A stretch of 64,000 bases of DNA. It comes from a virus. Made by a program: the position numbers and the translations under genes. How positions within the stretch are numbered: position 1 is the stretch's first letter; each line of letters opens with the position of its first letter. Below, piece after piece: positions 8,195-56,726 of this stretch. Location of the stretch: UHGV virus genome UHGV-0090440; one strand, 5' to 3'. The notes under the pieces were generated by a model. The model searched no databases. It was not told the origin of the DNA and was given only the letters and a program-made list of their open reading frames with translations.

Positions 8195-8387
8195 AACAAA
8201 GCCTCTCAGTCATAACCTGGGGGAAACTGTATGCAGGGTGTGAAATGCGAGAAACAGACAGGCCACCAGTTCAGGGGGATGTGGTTCATAAATCCCCTCA
8301 CTGGTGACAAGTGACTTTCATTAATCTTTATGCGGGGGCCAGCTTCATTTGCTGGCATTAGATTAAAAATTAAACGGAGTGAATGAC

Positions 8388-39332: not shown

Positions 39333-42300
39333 TTAAGCCGCCGCTTCAATGATTTTACGCACTTCATCAATTGAATAGCGCGTCGATACCATCCAGGCCG
39401 GACGGTCAAAGTCCACATCGGCAACCGGGTTAACTTCGAAGTTCCAGAAACGCCCACCGATTTTCTTGATGGCATCTTTTGCGTTGCGAATAGATGAAGA
39501 TCCGGGCATATCTGCAATGAGATAAACAGCACCAGCGTCTTCACTTACGCTCCACCAGCGACCGCGGACACGTGCTTTGGCGCGAATAGGCTTATCGTTT
39601 ACCACGATAATGTAATCATCATTTGCTGCCTCGTCAGCCTTGTTCTCAGCAGCATCAGCCTGTTCTTCCCGTTCAGTCTTAGCCGCCGCAAGACGTTCAG
39701 CAATCTCTGACTCCGTAGCGCCACTATTTTTAAGCGACACAAAGTCATCCCACGTTGCAGATTTCAGAGCATCAGGCAACTCTTCCACATACCCGCCCGC
39801 TTTTAAGGCGTTAGCATGGCGTATAGCCATCCCGACAAGACGATTCAAGCTATCTGCATCTGCGAAATCATCACGGGTAATGCTTTTATCCTCAAATGCA
39901 TGAATTAACGCCCCCGCTTTAATCCAGACTGTTGCAGATGTTTCAAGCGGATTATCGGCATTAGAAATGCTTAGTTGCGCACTGTAAACTGACTGACCTG
40001 CCAACGAGGCAAGTGACGCCCAACCATCTGCATCACTTTGCATTTTGTACTGATCAAACAGCGCATCACGCCATGCATTTAGCGCCATGCGTGTTTTCTC
40101 AATTTTGGTTGTGATTTTGGACGTTCGCAGTTGTTCGAACATCTGCGAAATCTCTGAACCATTGGTGAAGGCTTTCATGCGCCCCTGGAAATCGCGGAAA
40201 GAAAGCACGCCTCGCCAGTACGTTTCCAGGCCTTCTCCATTTGGCTTGCGGAACAAGCTGCGGACATCTTCCTGAGTCACTTTTTCAAGTGAACGCCCGG
40301 AGAGATCGCGCCCTGCCATCCAGCCATCGAACGCCTTGACCACATCATCCATAGTGGCCTGAGCGCCCCATGCCTCCATACCTTGCTCATAATCGAAGCC
40401 AAACAATGCACGGAGAAAACCTTCTGCCTCTGAAATACGAAGTGGGTTATCACCTGTCTGGATTTTCGCGACTTCGCGTTTTAATGCTTCGTCGTTTACA
40501 TCAGGATAAATCCATTGTTCAGGTGCTATCTCGTCACTTCCAGATGCGCTAATTTTTTGACCAATCATCCCGCCATAGGTAAAGGCCATTTGAATCTGAC
40601 CATTGGCGTTACGATAAGCCCAATAGTTTACATCCGGTGCTCCTTGCCAACCGCCACGATCTCTCCCAGTTACCCGCATAACACCGCTACGAATAGCGTC
40701 ATAGAATTGATCGCGAGAAAGAGAGGTTGAAAGCTGGTGGCTTTGAACACCACGTGCCGCTATTTCTCGTGATTCAGCCACCCCCTCTTCAAATGTTACC
40801 GCTTCAACCACTGAGTCAAACGGTAATGTCATGGTTGAGCCAGGAGAACGAGAGTGGCGACTTGCTCTATCCAGCCAGGCGACGCGGCAGGTGTATTGCG
40901 CTTTTTCGCCCTCAATTTGTGTCACGCGTACAATCGCCGTTGTCTCGTATTCAGCATCAATGACTGCACGGTAGTAACTACCTTTATGCAACAGGATGTT
41001 CTTGCCAGTGCGCATATACTCCTGCGGGTTCTGAATAACATCGATACTGATATCCAGCACACCAGACTTAATAGCACGCTCCACATCACCACGAGAGCGT
41101 TTCATAACAGTATCCGCGTCCTTCGCCCTGGTGATTGCAAATCGCAATTCACGCACTCTTTTTTTAGCTTTGCTTAGTGCTGAAAGCGTATATTTCTGTC
41201 CGTTTTTGTTGGTGCCGCTCTTAATCAGTCCATCCAGATCACTCTGGTATCGTTGCGCCTGCTCCATCGCGCTTTTCAGTTCTGCCTCCATCATGCCGAT
41301 ATCCTTCCCGGCAGCATTCGCCGCTTTCAGGTAGTTATCGAGAGCATTATTGGCTTCGCGTTGCGCTTTAAGTCGCAGGCGTTCCTCACGTTCTTTCGAC
41401 TGACGAGCCATAATTGCGCGTCGTTCTTCCGGATTTGCCGCCAGCATAATGGCGCGTTCATCAGCGTCATCCGCATCACCATTGGCGATCTCTGACATAT
41501 CGGAGGTCATCACCATCTTGATCCAGTCTTTCTTACGTTTAAGCGTATCCAGACGGAAGTCATCGAATGTGCCTTTGCCACAATAATAGTGAACATTAAC
41601 CTTCTCTTGCGGAGAACCTACGCGCGCACCGCGCCCATTTCGTTGGTCGATACTGGCAGGAGTCCAGGGTAGTGTCAGGTGGTGAATATCGGTCGTTCCA
41701 ATATGCAGGTTGATACCTACTTCGGCTTTCTTGTTACAGATAATGATCCGCGTGCGCCCTTCGTTATAGTCGGCAGCAATACCTTCCATCCCCTCAAGGC
41801 CAGCATCATTTTTAGCAGAGAGATAATCCTCATATTGGGCCAGTTTACTGTAGTAGGTTTCCCATGCGCCTTCTTTGTATTCACCGTCTTTGTTTGGCGT
41901 CGGTTCGGTCGGTTTTTTGACCTTTTTCAGCTTAACACCACCAGCCTGGCTAACAGTCGTAGCATTGATAATGCCTATCTCCTGCTCTGACATTTGCAAC
42001 GCACTGGCAATGATGCGACGTAGTTTCTGGTGCTGGGCTTTCTCGTCGATAAAGATAATTTGCTTACCGTTCTTAAGCCCTTCACGAAGGTTCTCGATAA
42101 GTGCGGCATACTTAGGCGGGATCGGGTGTGACACCTGTTTCATGTCGATGCCTGCATCAGCAATTGCCTTGAGTATTTCAGCCTCCAGGTCAATGCTGGC
42201 ACGCAATTCGACGTGATTTGGATGCTCACTAAATGTTGTAGCTACAACCTTGCTGGTACGGGTACTGACCAGGCCTCCGGTCGCATCCTCCTCTGCTTCT

Positions 42301-45300
42301 TCTGCATCGTCTGCCGCTTTCCCACCAGCCACTTTTGGTAGGTTATTAGCTATAGACTTCACCTGTTCAGTAAGCTCTACAGGGAACTGGAATGTGATAG
42401 CGCTGGCGTAAAGATCCGGGTCGATAGCGACCTTATCCATGTCGCGAATGATAGAGAAAATGAAATCATCCGGTTTCTCGCGAGTGATATTGCCTTCATC
42501 ATCGACAGTGACGTCATCACCACGACTTAACTCCTGCGCGCGTTTACGAAGCTCTTCATAAGCTGCTTGCTGCTCTGGAGTCATTGGGATCTGCAAGGTG
42601 TTTTCGACGATATCCGGGATTTTTACCGTTGCACCAACATCGGAAGCCGTTTTAAGCGTTGTCCAGCGGTGGAAAATGCCACGCAGACCATCAAGGTTCT
42701 GGAAGCCCACCAGCCCCTGTTTCTCTTCCACTTCGCCAGAAATTTTCTGGACCTGAACAGTGGCTGTTTTACCGAACACTCGCACAAAGTCGTCAGGGGT
42801 AATAATCCCCATGTGCATCCACTCGTGCTGAGGGATCACCGTTGACAGCATGTTGAAGGCGTCAATAGGGCTATTAACCAGCGGAGTTGCTGTCAGCATT
42901 ACGACGCCGCGCCCATTGTGACGTTTCATCATGTACGCAGCTTTTACAGCCATGTCACGGGCCATTTTGGATACCGCCGGATTAGGTAAATATGCCAGTT
43001 GCCCCGCTTCACGCCCGGCACCAAAGGAGTTGCGGTAGTTGTGCCCTTCGTCGGCAATTACGCTATCGAAGTTCATATCCTCAAAGTACGGGATATTCTG
43101 CTTCTTCGCTGTACCGGTATTCGCGGCCTGGTCCTTAATCTTGTTCTTCTTCTGCGCATCACGGTGCTTGCCTGACGCCAGGTCAAGACGCCCCATTTCG
43201 GCGGCATTAAAGACAGCCTGCTGTGAGTTTTCTCCGATGGTTTCATCGCGCAACGGGATAGATGCGAACTGCTCTTTTGTCATGATGACCGTTCGCCAGT
43301 TCGACGATGGGATCATGTTCATGCGTTGAGCGATAACGGCACTGGCGGATTCTTTAACAACATTACGGGTGATCGGATTGCCGTCGTTATCAAGTCGCGG
43401 GGTGCCGTCCTGGTCGAGCACTGGGGCAGTCTGAATATTTCCGTCACCATCGCGCACTTCGTCCAGACCGATAAACATCATATTGGCGAAGGCATCTGCA
43501 CTGTAGAAGCTCTGTGCCTCGTGATACCAGTTCTGGTATACGGCCTTTGGAACAACGATACAGGTACGTTTGGTTCGCCCGGTTTCAAAGTTATAGGCTT
43601 CCAGTGCCAGCGCGGTCGTCGTTTTACCCAAACCAGTTCCGAATCCCATAATCCCGCGCCCATCTTCCGACAGACGACGAACTTCTTCGTTCTGGTAAGA
43701 AAGCGGTATACGTTTCCCGCTGATGCCTTCAAGCCCCAGGGGTGCGTCTGAATGGGTAAATGGAATATAACCGTTAAAGGCGTCGTTATAATCGCGGGCG
43801 ATCTGGTCTGCCTGCGGGTGAGTTCTTAACCAGTCGTTAAAACTCGTCTCAAGCTGGGCGATTTTGTCCAGGTACTCGTTAGCGTTCTGTCCGCGCGGTT
43901 TAACACCGTTCAGGTAGTTCTCAAGCTGATTCAGGAAGCCATCTTTGTTATTCGCTTTCTTGAACTCGTTCCCGTTTTTGCCGTTTACGGTTCGTAGTTG
44001 ATAGCCAGTAAATACCCCGTCCTTACCTTCGTAATCGTCCGGGGATACCAGAATGCCGTTCTCAACCTTAAGGTCGGGTTCTGTATACTTAAACTCGTCA
44101 TAGCCCTGCTCTGCCAGGAACTCTTTTATCAGGCGGCGATCCAACCACCGTGCGTTAAGGTTTACCGTGACTTTGTTCAGCGGTGTAAACGTGCGTTTCT
44201 CTTCGATTTTTGAAAGCTGGCGCTCAAAGTTGGCCTTCCGCTCTCCTGTGGACGCGTCTCGCCAGCCCACCAGCAGTGCCACTTTTGATTTAATATCACC
44301 GCTGGTGGCACGGCCCATCGGTAGCAGGCAACCATATCCATCAATAGCGATATCGTCGAATTTCGCCAGGTATTCCAGTGCTTGATCGTCGTCTTCTGGC
44401 AGTTCGCCTTTAAACGCCTCGCGGAAGTCATCAAGATTGATAGGATTAAGGGCAACATCGCTGAAAAGGTGTGTCACAACCTGTTCCGGACGAGTGAAAT
44501 CAATACCAGCAGCCCCTTTGCTAACATCAAGCCGTCCGGACAGCAGATCGGATGCTTCACCGTCCTGATTGACGTTCCCGGTAAATGTCAGCCAGTTCTT
44601 CGCGCCCGCTTCGGTAATGTCGTTTAGCTTAATGGCGTGTGGTGGGCCATATTTAGCAACTTCGGCAGCCGTCAGACGTGCGGCATCAGCCAGTTCATCA
44701 TCGACGTTTTCACCAAGGTTACGCTTATCCAGCGCTTTATTGATAAGTTGCCCGATCAGCGCACCGCGCATAATGCGCTCACGGTCTTTTTCGCGTTGTT
44801 TCCCAGCAAAGCGAATCATTGCCGCTACTTCATCACTGATAACCGATGGATAGTCGGAAGCGATCGCGGATATCTGCCCCCATGACAGAGCCAGAATGCC
44901 GTTTGTTGATTGGAACGTTGTTTGCAGATCACCGAATGTCGAAACACCATATCGGCTTACATCAAGTACGGAGGATTTGGTTGTCGCATCTTTAACCCAT
45001 TGCAGGCCATCAAACTCGTGCCAGATGCCACCTACAAGGCGCTTGTCTCCTACTTTGGCGCCCTGCCATGCCTGAGTAGTTACGCCAAGCAAATCCCAAT
45101 TAATGCGGCTTTCAAAGCGGCGTGATAGCGCGGTTTTCATCGACTCATTGGATACACGACCGTCCTTTTTCACCACCAGAGTATTGCGGAAGCTGGTACG
45201 TTCCATGTCGCCGTAAACAAATCGCTTCCCTTCGGTTGTAAACCATTTTCCTTTGAGGAAGGTATCCCAAAGGACGTTTGCCGATTTGAGTGTTGAATCA

Positions 45301-46250
45301 TCCGTGTCGGGGATCATCTCCAGGAAGGTTTCCGGGTGTTTACGCAATACCCATACGTCCACCACGGTATCTGTACCGGATTCGCTGAACGTACCGGAAG
45401 GCATACGATGTGCGCCCAAAAATTCCGCTTTACGGCTGACTTTATCGCGCAATTTTTTATATTTCGTACCATCGGTCATGCCATTCGGCACCACCAATAC
45501 GATAAGCCCACCAGGCTTAACCTTGTCGATCGTGCGCAGCACAAAGTAATTGCCAACGTTCTTCTCGTTTGCATATGCCGGATCAAGCCCGGCGACACCG
45601 GAACGCCCTTCACCAAACGGTACGTTACCAACAGCGTGATCATACATTGCGTCTTTCGCCGCCAGCGCCTCAAACGCCCCGATATTCACATCGTCTTCCG
45701 GGTGCAAAAGCTGGTTTATTCGACCGGAAATCGGAGACAGTTCGGCGCTGGTCATTATCATGCCCTGTCGTTTTGTCTCCTGGAAAATACCTGTGCCCGC
45801 TGATGGTTCCAGTACGTGCCCGCCATCAATACCGTAGTCAGCAAACAGATCCCATATACCTTCAGCCATAAACTGTGGCGTGTAGTATTCGTATTGGCTG
45901 CCCTCACCATCTGTCAGGCCGCCTTCACCGGTATACCCGGCAAGAATCTGACGCTGTTCGTCAGTTAATTTCGCCCCATCGAAGCCGGGCGGAAGGGAAT
46001 TAAGAAGCTCTACTGCGGCGTTGTTTGCTGCCCGCCGTGTTTTTTGAATACTGACACCATCGACTTTCTTAACGCCAAAGGTCGCAACAGCACGTAATTT
46101 ATGCAACCGGCTAACAATCTCAATCAGTTCGCCTAAGCTGGAGGCTTCACTGATTGAATGAAGTAGTTTATCCAAAGGATTACCCCCTCTAAACCGTAAA
46201 AAATCCGCTATGCGGTACGGTTGAGAGGGTATGGAGAATGTTATTTTCAC
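39333..46250 (-). CDS. darB: DarB-like giant antirestriction protein (N6-adenine MTase + SF2 helicase fusion)
   Basis: 2305 aa. N-terminus has MTase motif I (VLEPSAGTGIF) and motif IV (NVPFGE); the middle has helicase Walker A (GTGLGKTTTALA) and DEGH box (VIADEGHNYRN) plus later helicase motifs. Architecture and size match P1 DarB (about 2255 aa). Apparent GTG start at 46250. Confidence 0.75.
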   Translation of the reverse strand: MKITFSIPSQPYRIADFLRFRGGNPLDKLLHSISEASSLGELIEIVSRLHKLRAVATFGVKKVDGVSIQKTRRAANNAAVELLNSLPPGFDGAKLTDEQRQILAGYTGEGGLTDGEGSQYEYYTPQFMAEGIWDLFADYGIDGGHVLEPSAGTGIFQETKRQGMIMTSAELSPISGRINQLLHPEDDVNIGAFEALAAKDAMYDHAVGNVPFGEGRSGVAGLDPAYANEKNVGNYFVLRTIDKVKPGGLIVLVVPNGMTDGTKYKKLRDKVSRKAEFLGAHRMPSGTFSESGTDTVVDVWVLRKHPETFLEMIPDTDDSTLKSANVLWDTFLKGKWFTTEGKRFVYGDMERTSFRNTLVVKKDGRVSNESMKTALSRRFESRINWDLLGVTTQAWQGAKVGDKRLVGGIWHEFDGLQWVKDATTKSSVLDVSRYGVSTFGDLQTTFQSTNGILALSWGQISAIASDYPSVISDEVAAMIRFAGKQREKDRERIMRGALIGQLINKALDKRNLGENVDDELADAARLTAAEVAKYGPPHAIKLNDITEAGAKNWLTFTGNVNQDGEASDLLSGRLDVSKGAAGIDFTRPEQVVTHLFSDVALNPINLDDFREAFKGELPEDDDQALEYLAKFDDIAIDGYGCLLPMGRATSGDIKSKVALLVGWRDASTGERKANFERQLSKIEEKRTFTPLNKVTVNLNARWLDRRLIKEFLAEQGYDEFKYTEPDLKVENGILVSPDDYEGKDGVFTGYQLRTVNGKNGNEFKKANNKDGFLNQLENYLNGVKPRGQNANEYLDKIAQLETSFNDWLRTHPQADQIARDYNDAFNGYIPFTHSDAPLGLEGISGKRIPLSYQNEEVRRLSEDGRGIMGFGTGLGKTTTALALEAYNFETGRTKRTCIVVPKAVYQNWYHEAQSFYSADAFANMMFIGLDEVRDGDGNIQTAPVLDQDGTPRLDNDGNPITRNVVKESASAVIAQRMNMIPSSNWRTVIMTKEQFASIPLRDETIGENSQQAVFNAAEMGRLDLASGKHRDAQKKNKIKDQAANTGTAKKQNIPYFEDMNFDSVIADEGHNYRNSFGAGREAGQLAYLPNPAVSKMARDMAVKAAYMMKRHNGRGVVMLTATPLVNSPIDAFNMLSTVIPQHEWMHMGIITPDDFVRVFGKTATVQVQKISGEVEEKQGLVGFQNLDGLRGIFHRWTTLKTASDVGATVKIPDIVENTLQIPMTPEQQAAYEELRKRAQELSRGDDVTVDDEGNITREKPDDFIFSIIRDMDKVAIDPDLYASAITFQFPVELTEQVKSIANNLPKVAGGKAADDAEEAEEDATGGLVSTRTSKVVATTFSEHPNHVELRASIDLEAEILKAIADAGIDMKQVSHPIPPKYAALIENLREGLKNGKQIIFIDEKAQHQKLRRIIASALQMSEQEIGIINATTVSQAGGVKLKKVKKPTEPTPNKDGEYKEGAWETYYSKLAQYEDYLSAKNDAGLEGMEGIAADYNEGRTRIIICNKKAEVGINLHIGTTDIHHLTLPWTPASIDQRNGRGARVGSPQEKVNVHYYCGKGTFDDFRLDTLKRKKDWIKMVMTSDMSEIANGDADDADERAIMLAANPEERRAIMARQSKEREERLRLKAQREANNALDNYLKAANAAGKDIGMMEAELKSAMEQAQRYQSDLDGLIKSGTNKNGQKYTLSALSKAKKRVRELRFAITRAKDADTVMKRSRGDVERAIKSGVLDISIDVIQNPQEYMRTGKNILLHKGSYYRAVIDAEYETTAIVRVTQIEGEKAQYTCRVAWLDRASRHSRSPGSTMTLPFDSVVEAVTFEEGVAESREIAARGVQSHQLSTSLSRDQFYDAIRSGVMRVTGRDRGGWQGAPDVNYWAYRNANGQIQMAFTYGGMIGQKISASGSDEIAPEQWIYPDVNDEALKREVAKIQTGDNPLRISEAEGFLRALFGFDYEQGMEAWGAQATMDDVVKAFDGWMAGRDLSGRSLEKVTQEDVRSLFRKPNGEGLETYWRGVLSFRDFQGRMKAFTNGSEISQMFEQLRTSKITTKIEKTRMALNAWRDALFDQYKMQSDADGWASLASLAGQSVYSAQLSISNADNPLETSATVWIKAGALIHAFEDKSITRDDFADADSLNRLVGMAIRHANALKAGGYVEELPDALKSATWDDFVSLKNSGATESEIAERLAAAKTEREEQADAAENKADEAANDDYIIVVNDKPIRAKARVRGRWWSVSEDAGAVYLIADMPGSSSIRNAKDAIKKIGGRFWNFEVNPVADVDFDRPAWMVSTRYSIDEVRKIIEAAA

Positions 46251-46325
46251 GGGGACGATACTACCGTCAAAATCACATACTCCCCATAGTTTGCCTACTT
46301 ATTAACCAATGACCGGAAAAAAAAT

Positions 46326-46811
46326 ATGGCAAACATTGAACCTCGCTGGCTAATTGAAGCACGTAAGCACATTGGCCTGACTGAAATAAAAGGCGCTAAA
46401 CACAACCCTGAAATCGTTCAGTTTTGGCGCGACATCAAGCGCAGCGGAATTAAAGACGATGAAACGCCGTGGTGCGCAGCATTTGTCGGTGCAATGCTGG
46501 AACGTGTAGGCATCCGCTCAACAAGATTTGAGTCGGCAAAATCCTATCTGGATTGGGGCGAGAAATTAGATACACCGGCATACGGATGTATCGTTGTATT
46601 TACCCGCGTAGGCGGTGGGCACGTAGGCTTCGTTGTCGGACGCCGCGCCAATGGCGATCTGCTTGTCCTGGGTGGGAACCAGGGGGATGCGGTTAATATT
46701 CGCGCATTCCCAACATCAAGAGTGTCTGGCTATCGCTGGCCTGCTGGCGAACCACGCAATACCGCTCTGTTACCAGTCGGAGACGCAGCAACCTCAACTA
46801 ATGAGGCATGA
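46326..46811 (+). CDS. putative peptidoglycan hydrolase (TIGR02594/CHAP-like Cys-His protein)
   Basis: 161 aa; conserved-looking Cys (TPWCAAFVG) and His (GGGHVGFVV) spaced as in small phage cell-wall amidase/peptidase families. Assignment from memory. Confidence 0.35.
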   Translation: MANIEPRWLIEARKHIGLTEIKGAKHNPEIVQFWRDIKRSGIKDDETPWCAAFVGAMLERVGIRSTRFESAKSYLDWGEKLDTPAYGCIVVFTRVGGGHVGFVVGRRANGDLLVLGGNQGDAVNIRAFPTSRVSGYRWPAGEPRNTALLPVGDAATSTNEA

Positions 46812-47467
46812 AAAAAGCCCCGACCAGGCCGGGGCATCACGCTTCAAGTCACGATCCAATCATTACCGACTATATCAGCCGTCGATAAATCAACTTCCCG
46901 GATCTGGAGTCCATCAGTGTGCCTCCGCAATGCTGGGATTGGTAATATTGCGATACCAGGGATTAGTGTTTGGTTGTGGGGAAGTAGAGAAACGACCAGT
47001 AAGAACACCATACTGATCAGGGATCAGAGAACGGGCTTCTTTTTCGGTTGCGGCAATTGCGAAGTGATCGCAGTGTTTTTGCAGGGAGTGGAAACGCCAG
47101 ATGAATTCTGGACGTGAGCAAGGATTGGCATTAACCATAGTTACGGCCTCACTAACAGGTTTAACAACCTGCTACCCGCTGTCAAACAGGTGGCAGGACG
47201 TGACAGGGTTGACAGACTGGCGTTAGTGAAACCAGCAGGCCGAAGCCTCCCCATCACGCCCCACCATAATTCGGGCGTAACGCGATTTACGGACACAAAA
47301 ATACCGCAATATCGGAAATCTGCGGTTGTCCGCACTAACATTCAGGCTGTCAAACCTGGTCGCAGAATTTGCTACGACGGCATTAATATAAGCCTGAAAA
47401 CATGGAAGATCAACTAAAAATTTCAGCAATGGATGACTTCAGTCGATGATGCAGATCATACATTCCG

Positions 47468-47498
47468 ATTTAGAAACAGGAAATTAATTTTCTAATAC
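47468..47498. promoter_or_regulatory. operator-like motif pair
   Basis: TTTAGAAACA ... TTTTCTAATACA. Confidence 0.35.
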
Positions 47499-47551
47499 AA
47501 ATCATCGAGCGAGCATTTGCCGATCATTGGGAAGTTTTGTAGGCACACAGG

Positions 47552-48514
47552 TCATCCCCTAAATCCCGCAGGGATTGACCAATCCTCCCGGTCAAATTCA
47601 GACCGATAGCCACGCTGTTTCATCAGGTCAAAGGCTTCACCAATGGTTGCACACCCCTGGGAGCCAGAATAATCCATTGAGAAATCCAGGACACTGGATT
47701 GTTTAGGCTTATTCACTGCGGTAGCGGCACTACGTATCCATGCAAATTTTTTTGCCAGCTTTTCAGCGGTACGATACAGAGCCTGCCGTTTTGCGTGCCC
47801 CTCGTCTGAACGACGCTTTGCAGCTCTCGCTTTTGCCGCCGCCAGGCAGCGGTTGGTATGTTCTTCCCTGATTACTGGTTTTTTATCCAGCGCCCCATTA
47901 TCCGCTTGAGAACTATCTGCTGGTGAAGCCTTTGGCTGAACCGCGCATGATCTTTCTCTTCTTTTTGCTATAGAGTGACTCTTATTTTCTATTGGCTGTT
48001 CATTTTGAACATGGGGGGACTTGTTCAAAATGAACAGGGGGTTCCCAGTTTCAAAAAAATAACGAACCTTTGAAATCAACTGCTTAACCAGTTTTGTGGC
48101 GTTGGCAAATTTGATGCCCTGCTTACCCCCTATCTCCATTGCTGCATGAATGAAGTGGAGAAATTGTGTCGTAAACCGATATACGTTACACACCTGGGCA
48201 TTGTTATTCGCTACCTGATGTTGCCTAACAAGCATTCCGCACTTCGTCGCTTCAGCAAATGCCCGGCGTACAGTAGAAATACTGCGTCCTGTAATCTCGG
48301 ACATATCAGCATATGAGCGACGGATCATGTATTCATCGGTAGCCCCTGCCAGGTTGGCGAACTCGGCAATAATAGCGCTATGTGAAGGGGAAAGAAGACC
48401 GCTATGACGAGCAAAAAAACTCAACTGATGACCTTTGATTTTTTTGTGGTATTCAGTGTTGTTTTTATACTCAGAAGTGTTGAAAGTTACTGAAACTGAA
48501 TTTAAAATATTCAT
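47552..48514 (-). CDS. hypothetical HTH-containing protein (possible replication or regulatory protein)
   Basis: HTH-like segment MSEITGRSISTVRRAFAEATKCGML; basic C-terminal half. Confidence 0.35.
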   Translation of the reverse strand: MNILNSVSVTFNTSEYKNNTEYHKKIKGHQLSFFARHSGLLSPSHSAIIAEFANLAGATDEYMIRRSYADMSEITGRSISTVRRAFAEATKCGMLVRQHQVANNNAQVCNVYRFTTQFLHFIHAAMEIGGKQGIKFANATKLVKQLISKVRYFFETGNPLFILNKSPHVQNEQPIENKSHSIAKRRERSCAVQPKASPADSSQADNGALDKKPVIREEHTNRCLAAAKARAAKRRSDEGHAKRQALYRTAEKLAKKFAWIRSAATAVNKPKQSSVLDFSMDYSGSQGCATIGEAFDLMKQRGYRSEFDREDWSIPAGFRG

Positions 48515-48575
48515 CAGATAGTTCCGTGAAAAAATCTATCTACCGTATAAATCTATGCCAGTGGATTTATACACC

Positions 48576-48609
48576 CAAAAGCCGCTTCTCAGCGGCTTTT
48601 GCTTTTTTT
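48576..48609. terminator. bidirectional rho-independent terminator
   Basis: aaagccgct-tctc-agcggcttt hairpin followed by TTTTGCTTTTTTT. Confidence 0.6.
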
Positions 48610-48686
48610 GGCAGTCGCTACCGGAGCAGTGACCGCGATCCTACTCGATCACATCGGACAGAATCAACAGTGTATATAAATACACT

Positions 48687-48699
48687 ATGTTAGAAATTT
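48687..48699. promoter_or_regulatory. operator-like motif ATGTTAGAAATTT
   Basis: 15 nt 3' of the stop of the protease-like gene; nearly identical 20-mer to the copy at 25035. Confidence 0.4.
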
Positions 48700-48714
48700 A
48701 ATTTCATTCTGCGG

Positions 48715-49713
48715 TTATGCCCGTCGTGAAACGAAGAGTAATGGGGTAGTATTTTTGCTCTCCTTCGGCGATAACTCCGGCTCTTTCTTGCCTGATATCG
48801 GCAAGCCATAAGTCGCATTTGCCCCCAGTGATTCAAGCATCGCAGCCACTATGCGAGCATCATCTTCAGACTGCATACGGCAGAGCGCCCGGCGCTGTTC
48901 TGCGCTAATAAAAACAGGCATTTCCTGGATAGCGTCACGCAAAATCCGGCGGCATTGCTTTGCATTTTCCCCCTGGCTTTCCATCATCGCTGTTTGAGTG
49001 CGCAGCTTATCTCGAAGCTGTATGTTTTCCACTTCAAGGAGCATCAATTCTGACTCAAGGGCTTCACGCTGTGCTGACTCGAAAATAGCCTGCTGATTCT
49101 TCATTGCTGAAAAGTGGTGAACAAGATCCGTAGCCGCGTTATCGGTAAAACCTTGTTCGATAAGTGCCGCATGAATAGCCGCGTCGCGCTCTTCTGCTGA
49201 TTCCAGCATCAGGCTTTTCTTGTCCAGACTGATATAGTTAGGCACAGTTACGTAATCAAAGCCGTGAAAAGACTTTACCAGGGATACAGATGAATCTGGG
49301 CCAGATGTAGCCCATGACCAACCACCAGCACCTGAATTAATCATTCCCTGTACAATACGCCCGGTGTCTGTATCCAGTATTTCCTGCGTATGGGTAACAA
49401 TGCCGTTGTCGTCAATCGAAATGTCGATAGTCCTGTTTGATGGCACGTTCTCCAATACAACAGGTTTCCCATCAACCATCACAACAGAGACTTCCGGCAG
49501 GTTCAGGCTTTTCGTTTTGTTATAGTGCATCGCCCGGCGACCATGACCGTAATAGCCATACATCTCACCAAGTGCGATACGCTCTTTTGTTTCTGGCGAG
49601 TTGAATGTGTCTCGCACCGACTGAATAACGTAATTTCGGTTGTTCTGCGGTGTGTGTTTGCGGATTTTCTCTACCAGGGAGAAGCGATCCGTAACAGTGT
49701 TCAGTGATTGCAT
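48715..49713 (-). CDS. putative head maturation protease / scaffold-like protein (Pro-like)
   Basis: 332 aa directly downstream of the portal-like gene; C-terminal coiled-coil region. Assignment by position and composition only. Confidence 0.35.
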   Translation of the reverse strand: MQSLNTVTDRFSLVEKIRKHTPQNNRNYVIQSVRDTFNSPETKERIALGEMYGYYGHGRRAMHYNKTKSLNLPEVSVVMVDGKPVVLENVPSNRTIDISIDDNGIVTHTQEILDTDTGRIVQGMINSGAGGWSWATSGPDSSVSLVKSFHGFDYVTVPNYISLDKKSLMLESAEERDAAIHAALIEQGFTDNAATDLVHHFSAMKNQQAIFESAQREALESELMLLEVENIQLRDKLRTQTAMMESQGENAKQCRRILRDAIQEMPVFISAEQRRALCRMQSEDDARIVAAMLESLGANATYGLPISGKKEPELSPKESKNTTPLLFVSRRA

Positions 49714-49726
49714 TATTTCCCTCCGG

Positions 49727-51409
49727 TTAATTGCTCATCACAAATTTTGCAAAGTTTATTAACTGTTCTGGCGTCCAGTTTTCCGGATCGTCACCGGACG
49801 ACAACGGCGCGGATTCGTACATACCATGCTCGTTGTTTTGCTCTGATTCATTCGCCTTAAACTCTTTGATCATGGTGTTGAGAGTGTCATCGTCGATGTG
49901 CAACTGCTCGGTGAACAGATAACGCATAAACGCGTCACTACCAGCCAGTTTCGGGTTGTTCTGGATCTGGTCCATAATTTGGGAGATGACAGCAACAAAG
50001 TTGGCGCGTGCATCCAGTTCCCGGTTTTCCTCTTCCTGAATAGCAGTGTTCATTGAGTTGAATTGCACGTCATAAGGGCGGTTTTTTTCGGTGTAAACCT
50101 TGCCGTATTTATAAGCGAGGTGAATGTCCAGAAGCCGATAAATAGTTCGCTGGGCGGCCTGTCTGATCCAGTTCGCGCGTAAGGCGGCCTGGATAGCTGT
50201 TTGCTGCCAACCGCCTTCTCCAAGTCCACCACTCATCTGATCAGCCCAGCCAAGCATTGTTGCGTCAATACCGAGGCTTGCCGCGAGCTGTCGGAGATGA
50301 AACATAACGTCTTCGATACCACTGATATCTGCGGGTATAGATTGCGTATCAATGGTGATCCCGTTCTTCCCATCCCCCATGACGGGTATCAGATGGTTAA
50401 GCACAGTTGGAATAGCGTTGGCATTAATCGACCTTTGCGCCACCAGGTCACTATGACGCTTCAATGCCTGGCTGACGCCACGCGTATAGTTCGCCGCATT
50501 AACCGGGTCAAGTGTGTTCGTCGTAAGAGCAATCAGGCGGTCAATTTTGGCTGCATTATTTCGCGTTGATTTCAGCGCGGCGAGCGAAGCACATAAATTA
50601 AGGTAAGGTTCATAGCTGTATTCCAGGAATGAAGTTCCGTAATTCTGCGTCTCCATTAACGGCTTATCAGCTTGATCACTTAACAGTGAGTACCCTTTTG
50701 TGCCGTAGCTAACCGGAATAACTTTATGCTGTGGCGTCCAATAGGGATTTTTCATGGAAACCAGATTCCACGGTTCGGTTATTACTCTGCGCAAACTATG
50801 CGTATCCAGGATGTAATCACCACTGAATCCAACCAGCTGGCTGCCGCGATAAAATTCCTGGACGAAATGTGGCAGAGTGTAATAACTGGACTCAATGCCT
50901 GTTATCCCCCTGCCCTGTTCAGCATAAGGTCGGACATAAGACACCCCAAAGATCGCCATGATCATGGCCCATGAAGGAAGTCCGTCATTAATCATCGCCC
51001 CCAAATCAGCGGTTAACTCTTCACATCTACTTACTGCCTCGGCATCGGAACCATCCTTTGGCGAAAGGATGAATGCCTGTCCGTTTTTTTTTGAAGGCGC
51101 AAGCGCATGTGCAATGTGAATGTTTAAAGCCGTCGAGATAGTCGGGCTTTTAGCCATCGTTTCCAGGATGTTGTACTTTTGCAGGCGCTCGCCGGGCAGT
51201 TCAGCGGATAAAGAAATTGAATCTGCCTCACTCGTCATGCCATCGCTATTGCTCCCCAGGATGCCTGGACGTAAAGCAGACAGGCCGGAACGAGCAACGA
51301 CACTATGTCCGCTCGTAAAAACGACCGGATCGGCGGGCGTAACATCACCACCGTTGAAGGCTTTCTTCAATGCTGACAGAAAGCCTTTGTTTTTGTCTTT
51401 CGTTGCCAT
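49727..51409 (-). CDS. putative portal protein
   Basis: 560 aa, acidic C-terminal tail, located in the head-gene block between the DarA-operon genes and the protease-like gene. Assignment by size and position. Confidence 0.4.
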   Translation of the reverse strand: MATKDKNKGFLSALKKAFNGGDVTPADPVVFTSGHSVVARSGLSALRPGILGSNSDGMTSEADSISLSAELPGERLQKYNILETMAKSPTISTALNIHIAHALAPSKKNGQAFILSPKDGSDAEAVSRCEELTADLGAMINDGLPSWAMIMAIFGVSYVRPYAEQGRGITGIESSYYTLPHFVQEFYRGSQLVGFSGDYILDTHSLRRVITEPWNLVSMKNPYWTPQHKVIPVSYGTKGYSLLSDQADKPLMETQNYGTSFLEYSYEPYLNLCASLAALKSTRNNAAKIDRLIALTTNTLDPVNAANYTRGVSQALKRHSDLVAQRSINANAIPTVLNHLIPVMGDGKNGITIDTQSIPADISGIEDVMFHLRQLAASLGIDATMLGWADQMSGGLGEGGWQQTAIQAALRANWIRQAAQRTIYRLLDIHLAYKYGKVYTEKNRPYDVQFNSMNTAIQEEENRELDARANFVAVISQIMDQIQNNPKLAGSDAFMRYLFTEQLHIDDDTLNTMIKEFKANESEQNNEHGMYESAPLSSGDDPENWTPEQLINFAKFVMSN

Positions 51410-51473
51410 GAATCACCGCAAATTGTTTCCAGTTTTGCGGCAGCATAATCAGTATGTGATTTCAGCGGTTGGT

Positions 51474-52859
51474 TTAGTTTTCTGTACGGCAATTATTTGG
51501 AACTGTAGAATTTTCAAACATAGCAAAGTTCAGACCTTTCCCTTCGCCAAATTCACCCTCAATCTCATCGGAAACGGCAGACAAAATGCTACGCAGATCG
51601 ACATCTCCGCCGCCGAACATATCGCCTAACGCTTGTTGCTGGTGAATAAGCTCATCGTTAATTTTTTGCGCCAGTTTCTTGAAAGCGGCCCCCATACGCT
51701 TAGCGCTTCTGTTGTTGGCAACAATAAACAGAGCAAGCGCTTCCGCTTCCGGAGTGCTATCTCCAAACAATCCACGCTGTGCGATCACCTCTTCTACTGC
51801 CTGACCGTTATCTTTTGCTTCACGAACAAGGTTAATTGCTTCCTGTAGCGCGGCAATAGCCTGTTTATCCAGACCATTCAATTGCTCTATGCCGTCTACC
51901 AGTCCGGTTACCGTGTCATGGTGAACATCGCCTGAAAGTGACTGCATTTGCGCAAAATCGCTGGCTGCCGTATTTAATGCGGTAAGGATGTTACGCATTT
52001 CCGGATCTGGCTCTTCCGCCACCAGCCGAACAAGCCTTTCATCCTTGTACGCTTTGGCAAAAATTGCATTCTGGATGCGGTCGATAAGTTGTTTCGTTGG
52101 ACGCCCATCGGCAGTAAGCAAACCTGCCGTCGCCGTATCACCTATTTCGCGCAAAAACGCACGAATAAACGCATCATTGGACCGCGCCAGTAGATTTCCA
52201 TCATCTGAAGGATTAAATAGCGCCATGACGCTCTCAGTGAGAAATTGCGCATCCGCATACGCTTTTTCACTTGCAGCCATCTCTTGCAGATCGCTGATGT
52301 TTGAATCGCGGGCAAATTGAGCGCGGTCTACATCTGTGAGTCTTTCTCGCACCAGTACGGGCATAGACATTTGCGAAATTTCGTCAGGATTCAGACCAAA
52401 CTCTTTCGCATGGTCGATCAGGTACTGGCGATATTCATCCGCCTGCCCTTGCTCATAGGCACGCCAGATACCCATGCTCCTTCCGTTGCCGGATTCAACA
52501 ACGTTGTCCGGACCAACTATCGGCGCTCCGTGGCTGCTCATGCCGGAATCCGTTAATTGTGCCGGGCGTAAATTGGAGGCAATACGGTTAACCTGGAGTT
52601 TGCTTGATAGCCGTGTACGGTCACGTGGCTGGAGTTCTTCCGGGAAGGCCGGATTAATCGTACCGTCAAGGTTGTTCGAAATGATCAGACTGCTGGCATC
52701 AACGACCTTAAAAGCCGTCTTTACCTCTGCCCCTTTACTGGTGACTACGTAACTACTGCGCCCCTGGCGTGTTTCTCGCCTCTCTAATGAAGAAACCAGC
52801 GCAATAACACTGTTAATGTCTGCTGCTTCGGATAGCGCGGAAGTAACTGACTTGTTCAA
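51474..52859 (-). CDS. virion-associated protein of the DarA operon (Ddr-like)
   Basis: 461-aa ORF downstream of darA in the same operon. Confidence 0.35.
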   Translation of the reverse strand: MNKSVTSALSEAADINSVIALVSSLERRETRQGRSSYVVTSKGAEVKTAFKVVDASSLIISNNLDGTINPAFPEELQPRDRTRLSSKLQVNRIASNLRPAQLTDSGMSSHGAPIVGPDNVVESGNGRSMGIWRAYEQGQADEYRQYLIDHAKEFGLNPDEISQMSMPVLVRERLTDVDRAQFARDSNISDLQEMAASEKAYADAQFLTESVMALFNPSDDGNLLARSNDAFIRAFLREIGDTATAGLLTADGRPTKQLIDRIQNAIFAKAYKDERLVRLVAEEPDPEMRNILTALNTAASDFAQMQSLSGDVHHDTVTGLVDGIEQLNGLDKQAIAALQEAINLVREAKDNGQAVEEVIAQRGLFGDSTPEAEALALFIVANNRSAKRMGAAFKKLAQKINDELIHQQQALGDMFGGGDVDLRSILSAVSDEIEGEFGEGKGLNFAMFENSTVPNNCRTEN

Positions 52860-52952
52860 AATACACTCCCCTTACATAGAAAGCAGGAAGTGTAAAAAGT
52901 GTGTGATTTATGGACTTGCAGGAAAGTGAAAGGGGCATTTCAGCCCCTTTGA

Positions 52953-53321
52953 TTAGCCTGCATAACCGTTGGCTTTCACCCAGCTTATGGTCTGCTCTTT
53001 AGCCTGTTCCAACGTAAGGAACTCGCCTACATAGTTTGAGATCCCACGTAGCGCATCAATAAATTCCATTTGTGTGGACTTTGTGAACACACCGCCCAGG
53101 AAGTCAGTCACTATCTTAGGGACTTCATCTACAACAGGATCAGTCTGTTGTTGCGGTTCCGCTGCCGGTTGCGCGGCAGTCCCCAGGCCCAATTTCAGCA
53201 TCACATCAACAATCTGCTTACCAATGGTGACGCGTTGCAATACTGGCGCAGTTTTCTGCGCCTGCATTAGATCTGATAGCTCTTTACCTAATTTCAGGCG
53301 GTCTAAAACAGAGATGGTCAT
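52953..53321 (-). CDS. small DarA-operon protein
   Basis: 122-aa ORF whose start overlaps the darA stop. Confidence 0.35.
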   Translation of the reverse strand: MTISVLDRLKLGKELSDLMQAQKTAPVLQRVTIGKQIVDVMLKLGLGTAAQPAAEPQQQTDPVVDEVPKIVTDFLGGVFTKSTQMEFIDALRGISNYVGEFLTLEQAKEQTISWVKANGYAG

Positions 53322-55252
53322 TAAGCACCTCCCTGCTGAATTTCAGCCAGAATGTTGATCAGGTAGTCAACTGCTGCACCCACAGTGGCTTCGTTCTCGT
53401 CGTATCGACCTGCACTGATTAGAGCATTTGCTGCTTCCTGTACATGATCAAGTTCAGTACTGATGACCGTCAGATCGCGGGATGTAAACTGCTCCGGCAC
53501 GGATTTCAGGTACTCCAGCGCTTTATCTGCCTCCTGATCAGCTTCACTTGCTGATTCACCCGCTTCTTCTGGCTCCGGCTCCTGTTCTGGTGCTGGTTGT
53601 GGTTGTGATTCTGGCTCAACCACATGCTCTGTTTTTACTTCGCTTGAATAATTTTGAAGGGCGTTATACACGTCCATAATGAAAAGGTTCTCCCCATCAC
53701 CAAGTGGATACGCCACGTTTGGAAACGCTTTGCGGAAAAGAATTTTCACTTGCGCCTTGAATGTTTTCAGGTCACTGCCAAACAGGTCCACATAGCCATC
53801 AATATGTTTAGACATGCTGGACACAACCAATTGGCCTGCAAAATCTTTCAGCTCATCTTCATCAGGAAGATAGAGCAACTCGTACTGGCTGACTTCTTTA
53901 TCTGTCAGTTTACGGTCATACGTAATGATACCGTGACGAGCATATCCGTAATACTGATCAGCCTGGTCAGGACGATCAAGCACGGCTTTATTTCCATCCG
54001 GCACAGCACCAACACCAGCCGGGCGAGATTGAAGTGCATAGTGGTATTTACCTACATCTTGGCTCTCTGGTTGTGATACTGGGTTCGTCTCGGGGGCTGT
54101 CTGTGGTGGTTCGGAGTCTTCCTGCTGGCCTGGTAACACATCAACTTTATATTTATCTGCGTTATGCTCTCGGTAGGCTTTAAGTAATTTGGTTGCAGCA
54201 TCTGCCAAACTGCCTCCTTTGACAGCACTGGCATCAATACTGAATTTACCTTCAGGTGCTACTATCGTAACGAAATTGTCACTGCCGGACGTGACATAAT
54301 TAACTTCAGCGCCATTATCCAGCACTGTTTTTCCGTCAATGGCAAGATTATGTTTTACATGTCGCAGCTGGTCACTAAACGCTCGCTCCTTCGTTTTTTC
54401 ACCTTTAGCAGACAACAATTTATCGCGTTTTTCTTGTAATTCCTCGTTGATGGCTTTCTGGGCATCAAGTTTTTTTTGCATCTCCGTAAGAGCAGCACGC
54501 TTTTCAGTCAGCCCACGTTGCGCAACGTCCACCTGATCAATTGTTATTGACCGTTCTTCTGCCAGTTTATCTGCTTCATTGAGATAACTCTCAATATCTG
54601 CCTTCATTTTGTCCTGGCGCTCTTTTGCTTTCTTAAATTTTTCGCTGTTACGCTCAATCAAATTAGATAGCGCCTGGCATACCTGGCTTAAAGAAACATC
54701 TCTCCCACCAATCGGGGCGACAACGTGAGTTACGTTACGCTTATTAAGTAAAAACTGAAATGCAACAAGCTCGTCGTTACTCTTTATTTTTGCCCCGTCA
54801 GCTGTTGGAGAGTGGAAAATTATGCTTGTACTCTGCCCGTCAGTAAGCGGTATCTGCGCGGTCAAAACAGGGATATTAGCTACCCGACGTACACGACCGA
54901 TAATCGCACCACCAATACAATTACGTCCATTTTCATCGGTCCCGGCTTCATCAGTCCCTGCCATAATATTCGTACCATTCAGGCCACGATTCAGCGCACG
55001 GACGAAAGCTCGCATTGTTTGAGCTAACCGAATTCTGGTTGTAGTTATGGACTCAAACATAGCTTCGTCAGACACAACCAGAATTTCATTGCCCATATAG
55101 GCAAGCTCAATATCTTCTAAGGTCGCCGCCTCAAAAATCAGGTCATCTTCGCTTAATTCTTCTGAAGACCAGCGACCTGGCATATAGCCGGGGATCGTAT
55201 CAGCAAAAGTAGACTGAATATTAATTCGTAAAGGATTGTTAATCATGCTCAT
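53321..55252 (-). CDS. darA: DarA-like internal head / antirestriction protein
   Basis: About 643 aa from the MSMINNPL start (P1 DarA is about 639 aa); central coiled coil; acidic P/E/Q-rich C-terminal region; located between an Hdf-like gene and Ddr-like genes. Confidence 0.55.
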   Translation of the reverse strand: MSMINNPLRINIQSTFADTIPGYMPGRWSSEELSEDDLIFEAATLEDIELAYMGNEILVVSDEAMFESITTTRIRLAQTMRAFVRALNRGLNGTNIMAGTDEAGTDENGRNCIGGAIIGRVRRVANIPVLTAQIPLTDGQSTSIIFHSPTADGAKIKSNDELVAFQFLLNKRNVTHVVAPIGGRDVSLSQVCQALSNLIERNSEKFKKAKERQDKMKADIESYLNEADKLAEERSITIDQVDVAQRGLTEKRAALTEMQKKLDAQKAINEELQEKRDKLLSAKGEKTKERAFSDQLRHVKHNLAIDGKTVLDNGAEVNYVTSGSDNFVTIVAPEGKFSIDASAVKGGSLADAATKLLKAYREHNADKYKVDVLPGQQEDSEPPQTAPETNPVSQPESQDVGKYHYALQSRPAGVGAVPDGNKAVLDRPDQADQYYGYARHGIITYDRKLTDKEVSQYELLYLPDEDELKDFAGQLVVSSMSKHIDGYVDLFGSDLKTFKAQVKILFRKAFPNVAYPLGDGENLFIMDVYNALQNYSSEVKTEHVVEPESQPQPAPEQEPEPEEAGESASEADQEADKALEYLKSVPEQFTSRDLTVISTELDHVQEAANALISAGRYDENEATVGAAVDYLINILAEIQQGGA

Positions 55253-55874
55253 CCTCCAGGCGCGCGATTTCTTCTTTAAGAGCACGTGTCTTAGCTACTT
55301 CCTGAGACAAGGCAGCTTTAACGTTACCCGTATCTTGCATTACTTTGTCTGACTTGCTCTGGAGTTTAGACAGTTTGTCGTTAGCATTAGCGATATCTTC
55401 ACGGAGTGCATCACGTGATTCTTTCGCTTCAGCTAATCTCTGAGCGTTGGATTTAACTCCCTGCCGCTTCTTATTTTCGTCATCAATATTTTTTGCTGCA
55501 CGAGCAAGTTTTCGAGCTAATGACTTCTGGAAAGAAGTTGCTCCGCGATTAAATAAAGCCGCAAGAGATTGCCCCAAAGCCGACATTGTTTTTACTGGCT
55601 TGAACGGTACTGTTTTACCATTCAGTTTGATCCCAGATATATCACCGGTATCGTTAACCTGAACTTCCATTGTCTGTTCATCAAGACCAATAAGGGTAAA
55701 CGTGCGCGTCATGATCCCATCTTTCTTCCTGCCATTACTTGCAGGGACCACCCTCGCTATCTTGTAACCACCTTTGCTGATTTCTTTGACGAGTTTTGCC
55801 AGCCCCTTTTCGTTTAACTCATCATAATTAAGAAGAACATAATTATTCTTATTTGACATCCCAGTCTCCTTCAC
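55239..55874 (-). CDS. hdf: Hdf-like protein (DarA-operon coiled-coil protein)
   Basis: 211 aa with a C-terminal coiled coil resembling the DarA central region; stop overlaps the darA start. Confidence 0.4.
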   Translation of the reverse strand: MKETGMSNKNNYVLLNYDELNEKGLAKLVKEISKGGYKIARVVPASNGRKKDGIMTRTFTLIGLDEQTMEVQVNDTGDISGIKLNGKTVPFKPVKTMSALGQSLAALFNRGATSFQKSLARKLARAAKNIDDENKKRQGVKSNAQRLAEAKESRDALREDIANANDKLSKLQSKSDKVMQDTGNVKAALSQEVAKTRALKEEIARLEDEHD

Positions 55875-56621: not shown

Positions 56622-56726
56622 ACCCCTCCAGAAATAACATCTAATGCGCCACTAACTTAGTCAGTTTGTTATTTCCTTACAGGACATCTTCTAAAATCTC
56701 CCTCCTTAACATACAAGGGGGAACAT

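Follow-up and report, generated by a model that had tools for sequence, protein, structure and literature searches.

The DNA analyzed here (the window, 64,000 nucleotides of UHGV virus genome UHGV-0090440) carries a complete set of six Dar genes, ulx, darB, ddrB, ddrA, darA, and hdf, all on the minus strand (Table 1). Each has a family-level match, the order and orientation found in P1 and D6 are kept for all six, and the products share 87 to 99% identity with those of phage D6 and 33 to 64% with those of phage P1. Judged by its sequence, the window belongs to the P1 family of phage-plasmids and resembles D6. EcoKI (n = 6) and EcoBI (n = 12) sites occur in it at approximately the chance level; its DNA would therefore be a target for restriction unless protected. 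A sequence-only reading had placed an antirestriction set at 39333-55874, which correctly took in darB, darA, and hdf but missed ulx, ddrA, and ddrB and included unrelated genes. Also inside this interval are repL, c4/icd immunity, a CHAP hydrolase, pro, and prt, which are unrelated to Dar.

Table 1. Features of the Dar locus and its neighbors, with positions in the window
Feature	Position	Strand	Description or basis
ulx	38862..39296	-	144 aa; PHROG 'Ulx-like anti-restriction', E 1.8e-59
darB	39333..46175	-	2280 aa, 253 kDa, TTG start
Family-restricted C-terminal region, darB residues 1561-2280	39336..41495	-	AF2, cluster search
Predicted parts of the DarB tail			Long helices 1582-1703; small beta-barrel 1720-1793; alpha/beta 1799-1885; all-alpha 1896-2181; terminal alpha/beta domain 2188-2279
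SNF2-type SF2 ATPase/translocase, darB residues 821-1560	41496..43715	-	Large insert separates the two RecA lobes
Conserved middle region, darB residues 341-820	43716..45155	-	~480 aa between MTase and helicase, without annotation
LPD36-like region (GEGG, TP motif) and putative gamma-class N6-adenine MTase domain, darB residues 41-340	45156..46055	-	Pfam, PDB, motifs
Presumed capsid-targeting sequence, darB codons 1-30	46086..46175	-	Aligns with P1 DarB N terminus
Candidate sigma-70 promoter upstream of darB	46243..46270	-	TTGACG-16-GAAAAT; consensus scan alone
prt (portal) and pro (head protease)	48715..51409	-	Directly 3' of ddrB
ddrB, short form	51474..52859	-	461 aa: DdrB-ParB domain and ~280 more residues
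ddrA	52953..53321	-	122 aa; PHROG 'DdrA-like anti-restriction protein', E 4.8e-50
darA	53321..55246	-	641 aa from D6 start; ORF 53321..55285
hdf	55239..55859	-	206 aa from D6 start; ORF 55239..55874
lydA/lydB (holin and antiholin), operon head	55849..56621	-	D6 orf30/orf29, 99-100%; P1 LydA/LydB, 34-43%
Candidate P1-type late promoter upstream of lydA	56638..56666	-	AACTGACTA / AAGTTAGTG boxes, then TTAGAT

The same gene set, in the same order and with the same flanks, is found in phage D6 (orf14-15 and orf25-28; GenBank MF356679; Gilcrease & Casjens 2018). The Dar system is thus already known, as the earlier reading held: the D6 record carries a P1-like annotation, labeling these genes as similar to P1 ulx, darB, ddrB, ddrA, darA, and hfd. 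The flanking DNA is 96.6% identical to that of D6, whereas darB is merely 83% identical at the nucleotide level; furthermore, the window lacks D6 orf23 and orf24, located between prt and ddrB in D6, as well as the Roi-like antirepressor. The experimentally studied prototype is the Dar system of P1 (darB-ulx; lydAB-hdf-darA-ddrA-ddrB), which has six homologues in the window.

Read on the minus strand, lydA to ddrB (56621 to 51474) form a contiguous series, in part overlapping, with hdf and darA directly after lydA/lydB, followed by ddrA, ddrB, prt, and pro. In both P1 and the window, hdf-darA-ddrA-ddrB come after lydA-lydB; prt-pro, however, follow ddrB in the window and are divergent from darB in P1. 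The prt and pro products are 99.5% and 98.5% identical to their D6 counterparts and 50% and 43% identical to those of P1, where Pro trims DarA (PMC12810830). The candidate late promoter upstream of lydA was found by eye, by comparison with P1 LPdar (AAGTTACTT-4-TACCAT) and LPpro (AAGTGACTA-4-TAAATT), and is an imperfect match; a strict search for the P1-type pattern missed the region upstream of lydA and gave no clear late promoter.

Hdf matches Pfam DarA_N (E 3.1e-17), PHROG 'Hdf-like antirestriction' (E 1.2e-75), and PDB 9ukm_H (E 8.5e-26 over residues 3-199) and is 97.6% identical to D6 Hdf and 40% identical to P1 Hdf. DarA matches DarA_N (E 5.1e-40) and DarA_C (E 1.3e-18) in Pfam and PDB 9ukm_I (E 1.4e-122 over residues 35-640), passes the NCBIfam equivalog anti_RE_DarA (NF052326; 1138.6 bits; cut-off, 350), and shares 95% and 39% identity with its D6 and P1 counterparts. 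These NCBIfam, PHROG, and PDB matches, with lydA/lydB adjacent, bear out the earlier description of a DarA-like 643-aa protein and an Hdf-like partner in a head/lysis block; the DarA-like ORF encodes 654 residues when called mechanically, 643 from the start chosen by that reader, and 641 from the D6 start. DdrA is 93% identical to the D6 protein and 33% identical to the P1 protein. DdrB carries the Pfam ddrB-ParB domain (PF18763; E 2e-42, residues 42-173) and is 98% identical to D6 DdrB and 64% identical to residues 2-442 of the 995-residue P1 DdrB. The C-terminal ~550 residues of P1 DdrB, to which Iyer et al. 2017 (PMC5512222) assigned a predicted zincin-like metallopeptidase domain, are lacking here, D6 DdrB being likewise short, and no match to this C-terminal half was found anywhere in the window. 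Since DdrB lacks the metallopeptidase half, the details of assembly may differ from those of P1.

The short DdrB bears on an alternative in which the darA operon is devoted chiefly or wholly to head morphogenesis (head-size control, capsid stability), antirestriction having been reduced or lost in the D6 lineage through truncation of DdrB. In P1, 55 DarA-Hdf pairs lie on the inner capsid surface (solved chains 9ukm_I and 9ukm_H) and brace penton-hexon junctions, and mutations in hdf and darA affect head morphogenesis (PMC12810830); the bracing and the mutant phenotypes fit such a role, as does a DdrB of 461 residues against 995 in P1. However, head and antirestriction roles are not exclusive in P1, the short DdrB is common to D6 and retains its ddrB-ParB domain, and darB, ulx, and ddrA, which are dedicated to antirestriction, are all intact. 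Moreover, darB is under strong purifying selection, with dN/dS values against D6 of 0.05 (helicase) and 0.17 (tail), at saturated dS. We consider a mainly or purely morphogenetic operon quite improbable and prefer to read these genes as part of a Dar system.

The longest darB ORF (39333..46250, minus strand, with a GTG start at 46250) encodes 2305 residues, the length given in the sequence-only reading, which had described an N6-adenine MTase joined to an SF2 helicase. The ORF is present, as are the helicase and a putative MTase domain, but TTG 46175 is most likely the start, which would give 2280 residues rather than 2305: GAGGGGG lies 7 nt 5' of this codon, and the resulting N terminus, MDKLLHSISE, is the same as that of D6 orf15. 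The consensus scan that gave the candidate sigma-70 promoter showed no enrichment of sigma-70-like sites in this region; PdarB of P1 is predicted at the equivalent position. PHROG 1685 covers DarB from end to end, and the protein is 87.5% identical to D6 DarB. The earlier assignment to the architecture of P1 DarB also held, with 43% identity over residues 1-1937, collinear domains in a common CTS-LPD36-MTase-SNF2-tail arrangement (the CTS and MTase being putative), and an adjoining ulx. As in P1, ulx lies 36 nt downstream of the darB stop; its product is 99.3% identical to D6 orf14 and 48% identical to P1 Ulx. The Ulx protein of P1 is an accessory protein that aids incorporation of DarB into the head.

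The N-terminal 40 residues of DarB can be aligned with those of P1 and other family members, among which an S-S/V..E-L/I-I pattern is maintained; the first 30 would have a targeting role. In P1 DarB, the first 30 residues suffice to direct a reporter protein into the capsid (PMC9024508). A capsid-targeting motif common to the DarB and DdrB N termini was also considered; an HMM of DarB N termini matches the DdrB N terminus in register (E 0.035 for the P1 locus, the best non-self match, and 3.2 for the window), a signal too weak to claim.

The LPD36 and MTase domains of DarB were described by Iyer 2017 (PMC5512222). In the window protein, Pfam N6_Mtase matches residues 152-282 with 20.0 bits, slightly below the cut-off of 20.4; the Pfam Eco57I methylase is also below its cut-off, with E values as low as 4.9e-8 among family members, and PDB 7eew, a type I MTase subunit, matches the region at E 0.0011. 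Motif I reads EPSAGTG, and motif IV reads NVPF instead of NPP(Y/F), as in nearly all of the DarB family, P1 included. Given this motif IV and the marginal N6_Mtase score, methyl transfer by DarB is regarded as putative only. The middle region has no Pfam match, and its AF2 model (mean pLDDT 73.5) gave nothing at E ≤ 0.001 against the PDB with Foldseek; many of its columns are invariant in 7 lineages. SNF2-rel_dom (48.7 bits; cut-off, 24.9), ResIII, and Helicase_C match residues 826-1520, where the helicase motifs are GFGTGLGKT (I), DEGH (II), LTATP (III), and QRNGRGARVG (VI). The MTase and helicase motifs are conserved in nine family members or lineages, 36 to 87% identical to the window protein, with helicase motifs I, II, III, and VI invariant or nearly so.

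A giant MTase-helicase might instead be a prophage-encoded defense enzyme (R-M/DISARM/BREX-like) that remains unpackaged and defends the lysogen against other DNA entering the cell. In favor are the resemblance of the MTase to type I and Eco57I methylases and weak, far subthreshold matches of the helicase C-lobe to DISARM DrmD, DpdE, Dnd restriction, and ZorD models. However, these matches fall far under the curated cut-offs (e.g., 49 bits versus 610), and Pfam searches of the window protein and of family members found no nuclease domain. DarB is also collinear with P1 DarB, including the presumed capsid-targeting N terminus, with ulx immediately downstream, and P1 DarB was identified as a virion protein by proteomics (PMC9024508). 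A resident defense enzyme is therefore very unlikely, and a packaged Dar component remains our reading of DarB.

Helicase motif VI ends near residue 1520, leaving a tail of ~740-760 residues without annotation; the earlier reading had put this extension at about 900 residues, which was too long, and had rightly described it as devoid of a recognizable motif. No sequence match to the tail was found in Pfam, NCBIfam, or the PDB, and at E ≤ 1 no Pfam family was recurrent in the tails of 15 family members. The C-terminal region is predicted to be well folded (AF2 mean pLDDT, 83.9); with Foldseek, its model matched nothing in the PDB at E ≤ 0.001 and gave a tentative, weak Tudor/SH3/BAH-like barrel signal. 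Among 1.84 billion proteins, 28 representative clusters match the region, all of them DarB-like giants or fragments, and a word-indexed protein search with the tail yielded nothing beyond close fragments from E. coli and Salmonella. Residues 1938-2143 could not be aligned to P1 DarB by BLASTP, and the last ~130 residues match it weakly again (26%; pairwise E 6e-4). The tail evolves under purifying selection; positive selection was rejected because dN/dS is 0.17. The C-terminal 720 residues would represent a folded, lineage-specific module.

The darB gene is a mosaic whose modules have been traded among D6-like plasmids, with breakpoints at predicted domain borders. Between codon ~341 and the stop codon, the window carries a deeply diverged allele relative to D6 (dS of ~1 or more), and over residues 1741-2160 the two proteins share 55 to 75% amino acid identity. 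Two deeply diverged tail alleles occur in D6-like plasmids, the window type in 6 of 119, and residues ~1600-2200 recombine separately from the terminal domain as well as from the MTase and the motor. These two alleles, the swaps at domain borders, and the restriction of the region to P1/D6-type DarB lend support to the idea that this stretch might act as an interchangeable module for specificity, choosing which restriction or defense systems are countered, a speculation that we think rather unlikely to be correct. There is only a very slim chance that DarB binds and inactivates the restriction enzyme itself via this variable region, as do Ocr and ArdA, rather than acting on DNA: the region is the fastest-evolving part of DarB, with two deep alleles swapped as a module, the pattern expected for a surface touching variable host proteins, but conservation is strongest in the motor and MTase motifs, the tail shows no sign of positive selection, and P1 Dar acts only in cis, on DNA of the same capsid, according to the summary of Iida 1987 in PMC12707154, whereas a free inhibitor would behave otherwise.

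The gene content, the homologies, the conserved catalytic motifs, the purifying selection, and the modular mosaic were observed directly, and by homology with P1 the region very probably encodes the defense-against-restriction (Dar) system of a P1-family phage-plasmid that resembles D6. The cis action, virion location, and incorporation order of P1 Dar have been described (PMC12707154, PMC9024508, PMC12810830), and by homology packaging, ejection, and antirestriction are likely to proceed similarly here, with DNA tracking as the proposed mechanism. Late in infection, Hdf and DarA would attach to the inside of the procapsid and bring in DdrA and DdrB and thereafter Ulx and DarB, the last entering the head via its N-terminal ~30-residue targeting sequence. 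In the next infection, the Dar proteins would exit the head together with the DNA and, acting in cis, shield only this co-injected DNA against type I restriction enzymes, and probably against BREX as well, with DarB as the effector against EcoK/EcoB-type enzymes. Most likely, DarB would load on the entering duplex and track along it with its SNF2-type motor, either methylating adenines or blocking and displacing the translocating restriction complex. An MTase-translocase model of DarB was put forward by Iyer 2017 (PMC5512222), and even for P1 the mechanism is undefined after almost 40 years (PMC11109961, PMC12707154). When darB is carried on a plasmid, EcoKI restriction is alleviated by way of the darB DNA (PMC11109961).

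The MTase-helicase dyad is shared with the MTase-SNF2 'polyvalent proteins' of Bcep22-like, Ralstonia, and other phages (Iyer et al. 2017), which are annotated as DarB-like antirestriction proteins. However, such proteins match only the MTase and helicase cores, 10 to 25% of the query; they carry other domains, e.g., a lytic transglycosylase, and lack the P1/D6-type C-terminal region. A parallel to DarB is IPI* of phage T4, which is packaged into the head, carries an N-terminal capsid-targeting sequence, and enters the cell along with the DNA to defeat a restriction enzyme. The analogy between the two was drawn previously (PMC9024508); unlike DarB, to which it has no homology, IPI* is small and a direct inhibitor of its target enzyme, not an enzyme-motor fusion.

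The window instance is no new kind of system. What it offers is a DarB built of modules recombining between plasmids at predicted domain borders, with a tail that evolves under purifying selection, has a predicted fold, and provides concrete alleles for experimental swaps. Dar helps to explain how P1-family phage-plasmids, which often carry resistance genes, and the DNA transduced by them can move between strains whose type I restriction systems differ.

The DNA flanking the giant gene (46251-56700) is 96.6% identical to that of Escherichia phage D6, and many E. coli phage-plasmids match the window at about 97-98% over its first 25 kb; these alignments identify the window as a D6-like phage-plasmid. 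D6 belongs to the P1 family of plasmid prophages. At the DNA level, identity to D6 is lower in the giant gene, darB (83.4%). As judged from family matches, all six known components of the Dar (defence against restriction) system are present. DarA passes its NCBIfam equivalog (1138.6 bits, cut-off 350) and carries DarA_N and DarA_C domains, and Hdf has a DarA_N domain and a PHROG Hdf-like match; both match solved P1 chains over their whole length (9ukm_I and 9ukm_H, respectively). Ulx and DdrA each match the PHROG family of their own name, and DdrB matches Pfam ddrB-ParB. These matches bear out the sequence-only reading, which had recognized DarB-, DarA- and Hdf-like proteins of a known antirestriction system, as do the D6 counterparts labeled "similar to" P1 ulx, darB, ddrB, ddrA, darA, hfd, lydB and lydA in GenBank MF356679.

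The minus-strand order is lydA, lydB, hdf, darA, ddrA, ddrB, prt, pro, repL, the c4/icd immunity region, darB and ulx; the range earlier given to one gene set, 39333-55874, therefore comprises two Dar blocks separated by unrelated genes. Here prt-pro follows ddrB on the same (minus) strand as darB, whereas P1 has it divergent from darB. The prt-ddrB gap (51409-51474) is 64 nt; D6 has two extra genes there, orf23 and orf24 (about 1.1 kb). Just one weak consensus sigma-70 site was found upstream of darB, and an imperfect look-alike of a P1-type late promoter upstream of lydA. The CHAP hydrolase next to darB, assigned to TIGR02594 in RefSeq relatives, also hits PHROG 1259 ("baseplate hub subunit and tail lysozyme"), in the C-terminal part of that family. 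The immI region has a strong terminator-like hairpin (46817-46835) and is missing the Roi-like antirepressor gene that comes next after icd in D6. Elsewhere, Pfam PF11195 (E, 1e-9) marks a domain resembling Tad2 (Thoeris anti-defence 2) in a 191-aa protein encoded at 31304-31879 (minus strand), possibly the product of a second anti-defence gene.

Features of the CHAP hydrolase gene and immunity region, the predicted structure of the DarB tail and the mosaic darB of plasmid NZ_CP099330
Feature	Position	Strand	Description
CHAP-domain peptidoglycan hydrolase gene	46326-46811	+	directly upstream of darB, divergent
immI region	46817-47400	-	C4 antisense RNA 47186-47271; a1b1 targets 47339-47391; icd 46914-47138
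DarB tail	residues 1582-1703		long basic helices (AlphaFold2 prediction, computed charge)
DarB tail	residues 1720-1793		small beta-barrel (AlphaFold2 prediction)
DarB tail	residues 1799-1885		alpha/beta unit (AlphaFold2 prediction)
DarB tail	residues 1896-2181		acidic all-alpha domain (AlphaFold2 prediction, computed charge)
DarB tail	residues 2188-2279		terminal alpha/beta domain (AlphaFold2 prediction)
NZ_CP099330 darB	codons 1-300		third type, 78-88% to both window and D6 types
NZ_CP099330 darB	codons ~300-1560		window type, 91-99%
NZ_CP099330 darB	codons ~1600-2200		D6 type, 93-98%
NZ_CP099330 darB	last ~80 codons		window type, 94%

The 2305-codon open reading frame of darB (39333..46250, minus strand) is real; however, the protein length of 2305 aa probably does not hold. 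No ribosome-binding site was found for its GTG start, and the TTG at 46175 has GAGGGGG 7 nt upstream and gives an N terminus (MDKLLHSISE...) matching the start of D6 orf15, so that DarB is most likely 2280 aa (253 kDa). In the proposed architecture, the domain search upheld the SF2 helicase and gave marginal matches for the N6-adenine methyltransferase: Pfam N6_Mtase matches marginally at residues 152-282, with Eco57I methylase below cut-off, and SNF2-rel_dom, ResIII and Helicase_C lie between 826 and 1520. Nine DarB family members, 36-87% identical to the window protein, conserve EPSAGTG (methyltransferase motif I) as well as motifs I, II (DEGH), III and VI of the helicase; in nearly all nine, including P1, methyltransferase motif IV is NVPF, not NPP(Y/F). 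Also seen are the GEGG and TP motifs described for LPD36 and the methyltransferase N terminus by Iyer et al. (PMC5512222). A second unannotated stretch, residues 341-820, gave a model (pLDDT, 73.5) with no match by fold search.

Compared with their P1 homologues, DdrB (N-terminal half) is 64% identical, Ulx 48%, DarB 43%, Hdf 40%, DarA 39% and DdrA 33%. The 461-aa DdrB covers no more than residues 2-442 of the 995-residue P1 protein; the missing half, to which a metallopeptidase domain has been assigned (PMC5512222), is absent from the whole window, and D6 DdrB is likewise short (454 aa). The middle of the DarB tail has no BLASTP alignment with P1 DarB.

With the end of helicase motif VI near residue 1520, the tail is about 760 residues, not the roughly 900 first estimated. 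Its lack of a recognizable motif was confirmed: sequence searches against Pfam, NCBIfam and PDB gave no match, even with 15 family members at E <= 1. An exhaustive HMMER search of residues 1601-2280 against 1.84 billion representatives returned only 28 clusters, all of them DarB-like and about 2200-2300 aa long, or fragments of such proteins; this region is therefore specific to the DarB family. AlphaFold2 with a 15-sequence alignment gave a confident multidomain model (mean pLDDT, 83.9; pTM, 0.47), and the tail is predicted to be structured. A subthreshold NCBIfam DrmD match extends beyond RecA2 to about residue 1674, suggesting that the first helices may be part of the SNF2 module. Foldseek with the tail model returned nothing at E <= 0.001; Tudor, Agenet, BAH and KOW barrels recurred with high probability (TM, 0.6-0.77 to target), and the small barrel is tentatively Tudor/SH3-like.

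Against D6, the first ~340 codons of darB are 99% identical in DNA, the remainder to the stop codon is 63-95% identical, and ulx is back to 95-99%. Between codons 341 and 1620, dS is about 1 and dN/dS is 0.05; between 1621 and 2140, the values are about 1.25 and 0.17. From these comparisons, darB from codon ~340 is an old allele acquired by recombination and under purifying selection throughout. Amino acid divergence is concentrated at residues 1741-2160 (55-75% identity). In the plasmid collection, tail-coding DNA is bimodal: 5 records at least 99% identical, 1 at 90-95% and 113 at 60-80%. Modular exchange between deeply diverged alleles (window type and D6 type) is seen directly in Escherichia fergusonii plasmid NZ_CP099330, whose darB (1501-8337) is, by sequence, a four-part mosaic with breakpoints that coincide with predicted domain borders. 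Ulx is 99% identical to D6 though most of DarB is replaced, which argues that it does not covary with the tail.

In P1, pairs of DarA and Hdf line the inside of the capsid where pentons and hexons meet, touching DNA (PMC12810830). The remaining Dar proteins join in a set order, with DarB entering late, in about 40 copies and via its first 30 residues (PMC9024508). When the DNA leaves, they leave too, and their protection against type I systems and BREX covers just the DNA that shared their capsid (PMC12707154); the mechanism is still described as unclear (PMC12707154, PMC11109961). Iyer et al. proposed that the methylase is carried along the entering duplex by the SNF2 motor (PMC5512222). By analogy, DarA-Hdf here would line the inner capsid, with the other Dar proteins added in order and DarB late; they would leave with the DNA, protecting DNA of the same capsid from type I systems and probably BREX, and the SNF2 motor of DarB would move the methylase along the incoming duplex. 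A model in which both activities are needed fits the strict conservation of both catalytic motif sets. The first ~28 residues of DarB (46175-46086) and DdrB (52859-52770) are alike (S-E-A..I..V..L), as in P1, and an HMM of DarB N termini matches the DdrB N terminus in register (E, 0.035 in the P1 locus and 3.2 in the window); a shared capsid-targeting helix is possible, the window signal being too weak to claim it.

EcoKI and EcoBI sites occur at about chance level, and the window DNA would therefore need protection. EcoAI (GAGN7GTCA), the system countered by DarA and DdrA in P1, has a single site in 64 kb (2766-2779; expected, 6.0 +/- 2.3), a marginal depletion. There are 43 copies of the Chi sequence GCTGGTGG in 1-64000, against 1.9 expected from shuffles, and seven of them lie inside darB (39552-44308); P1 is likewise Chi rich, and the Chi sites of P1 darB are responsible for plasmid-induced alleviation of EcoKI restriction (PMC11109961).

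In conclusion, the Dar region is a known system that is already annotated, and the remaining interest lies in the modular, family-restricted tail of DarB.
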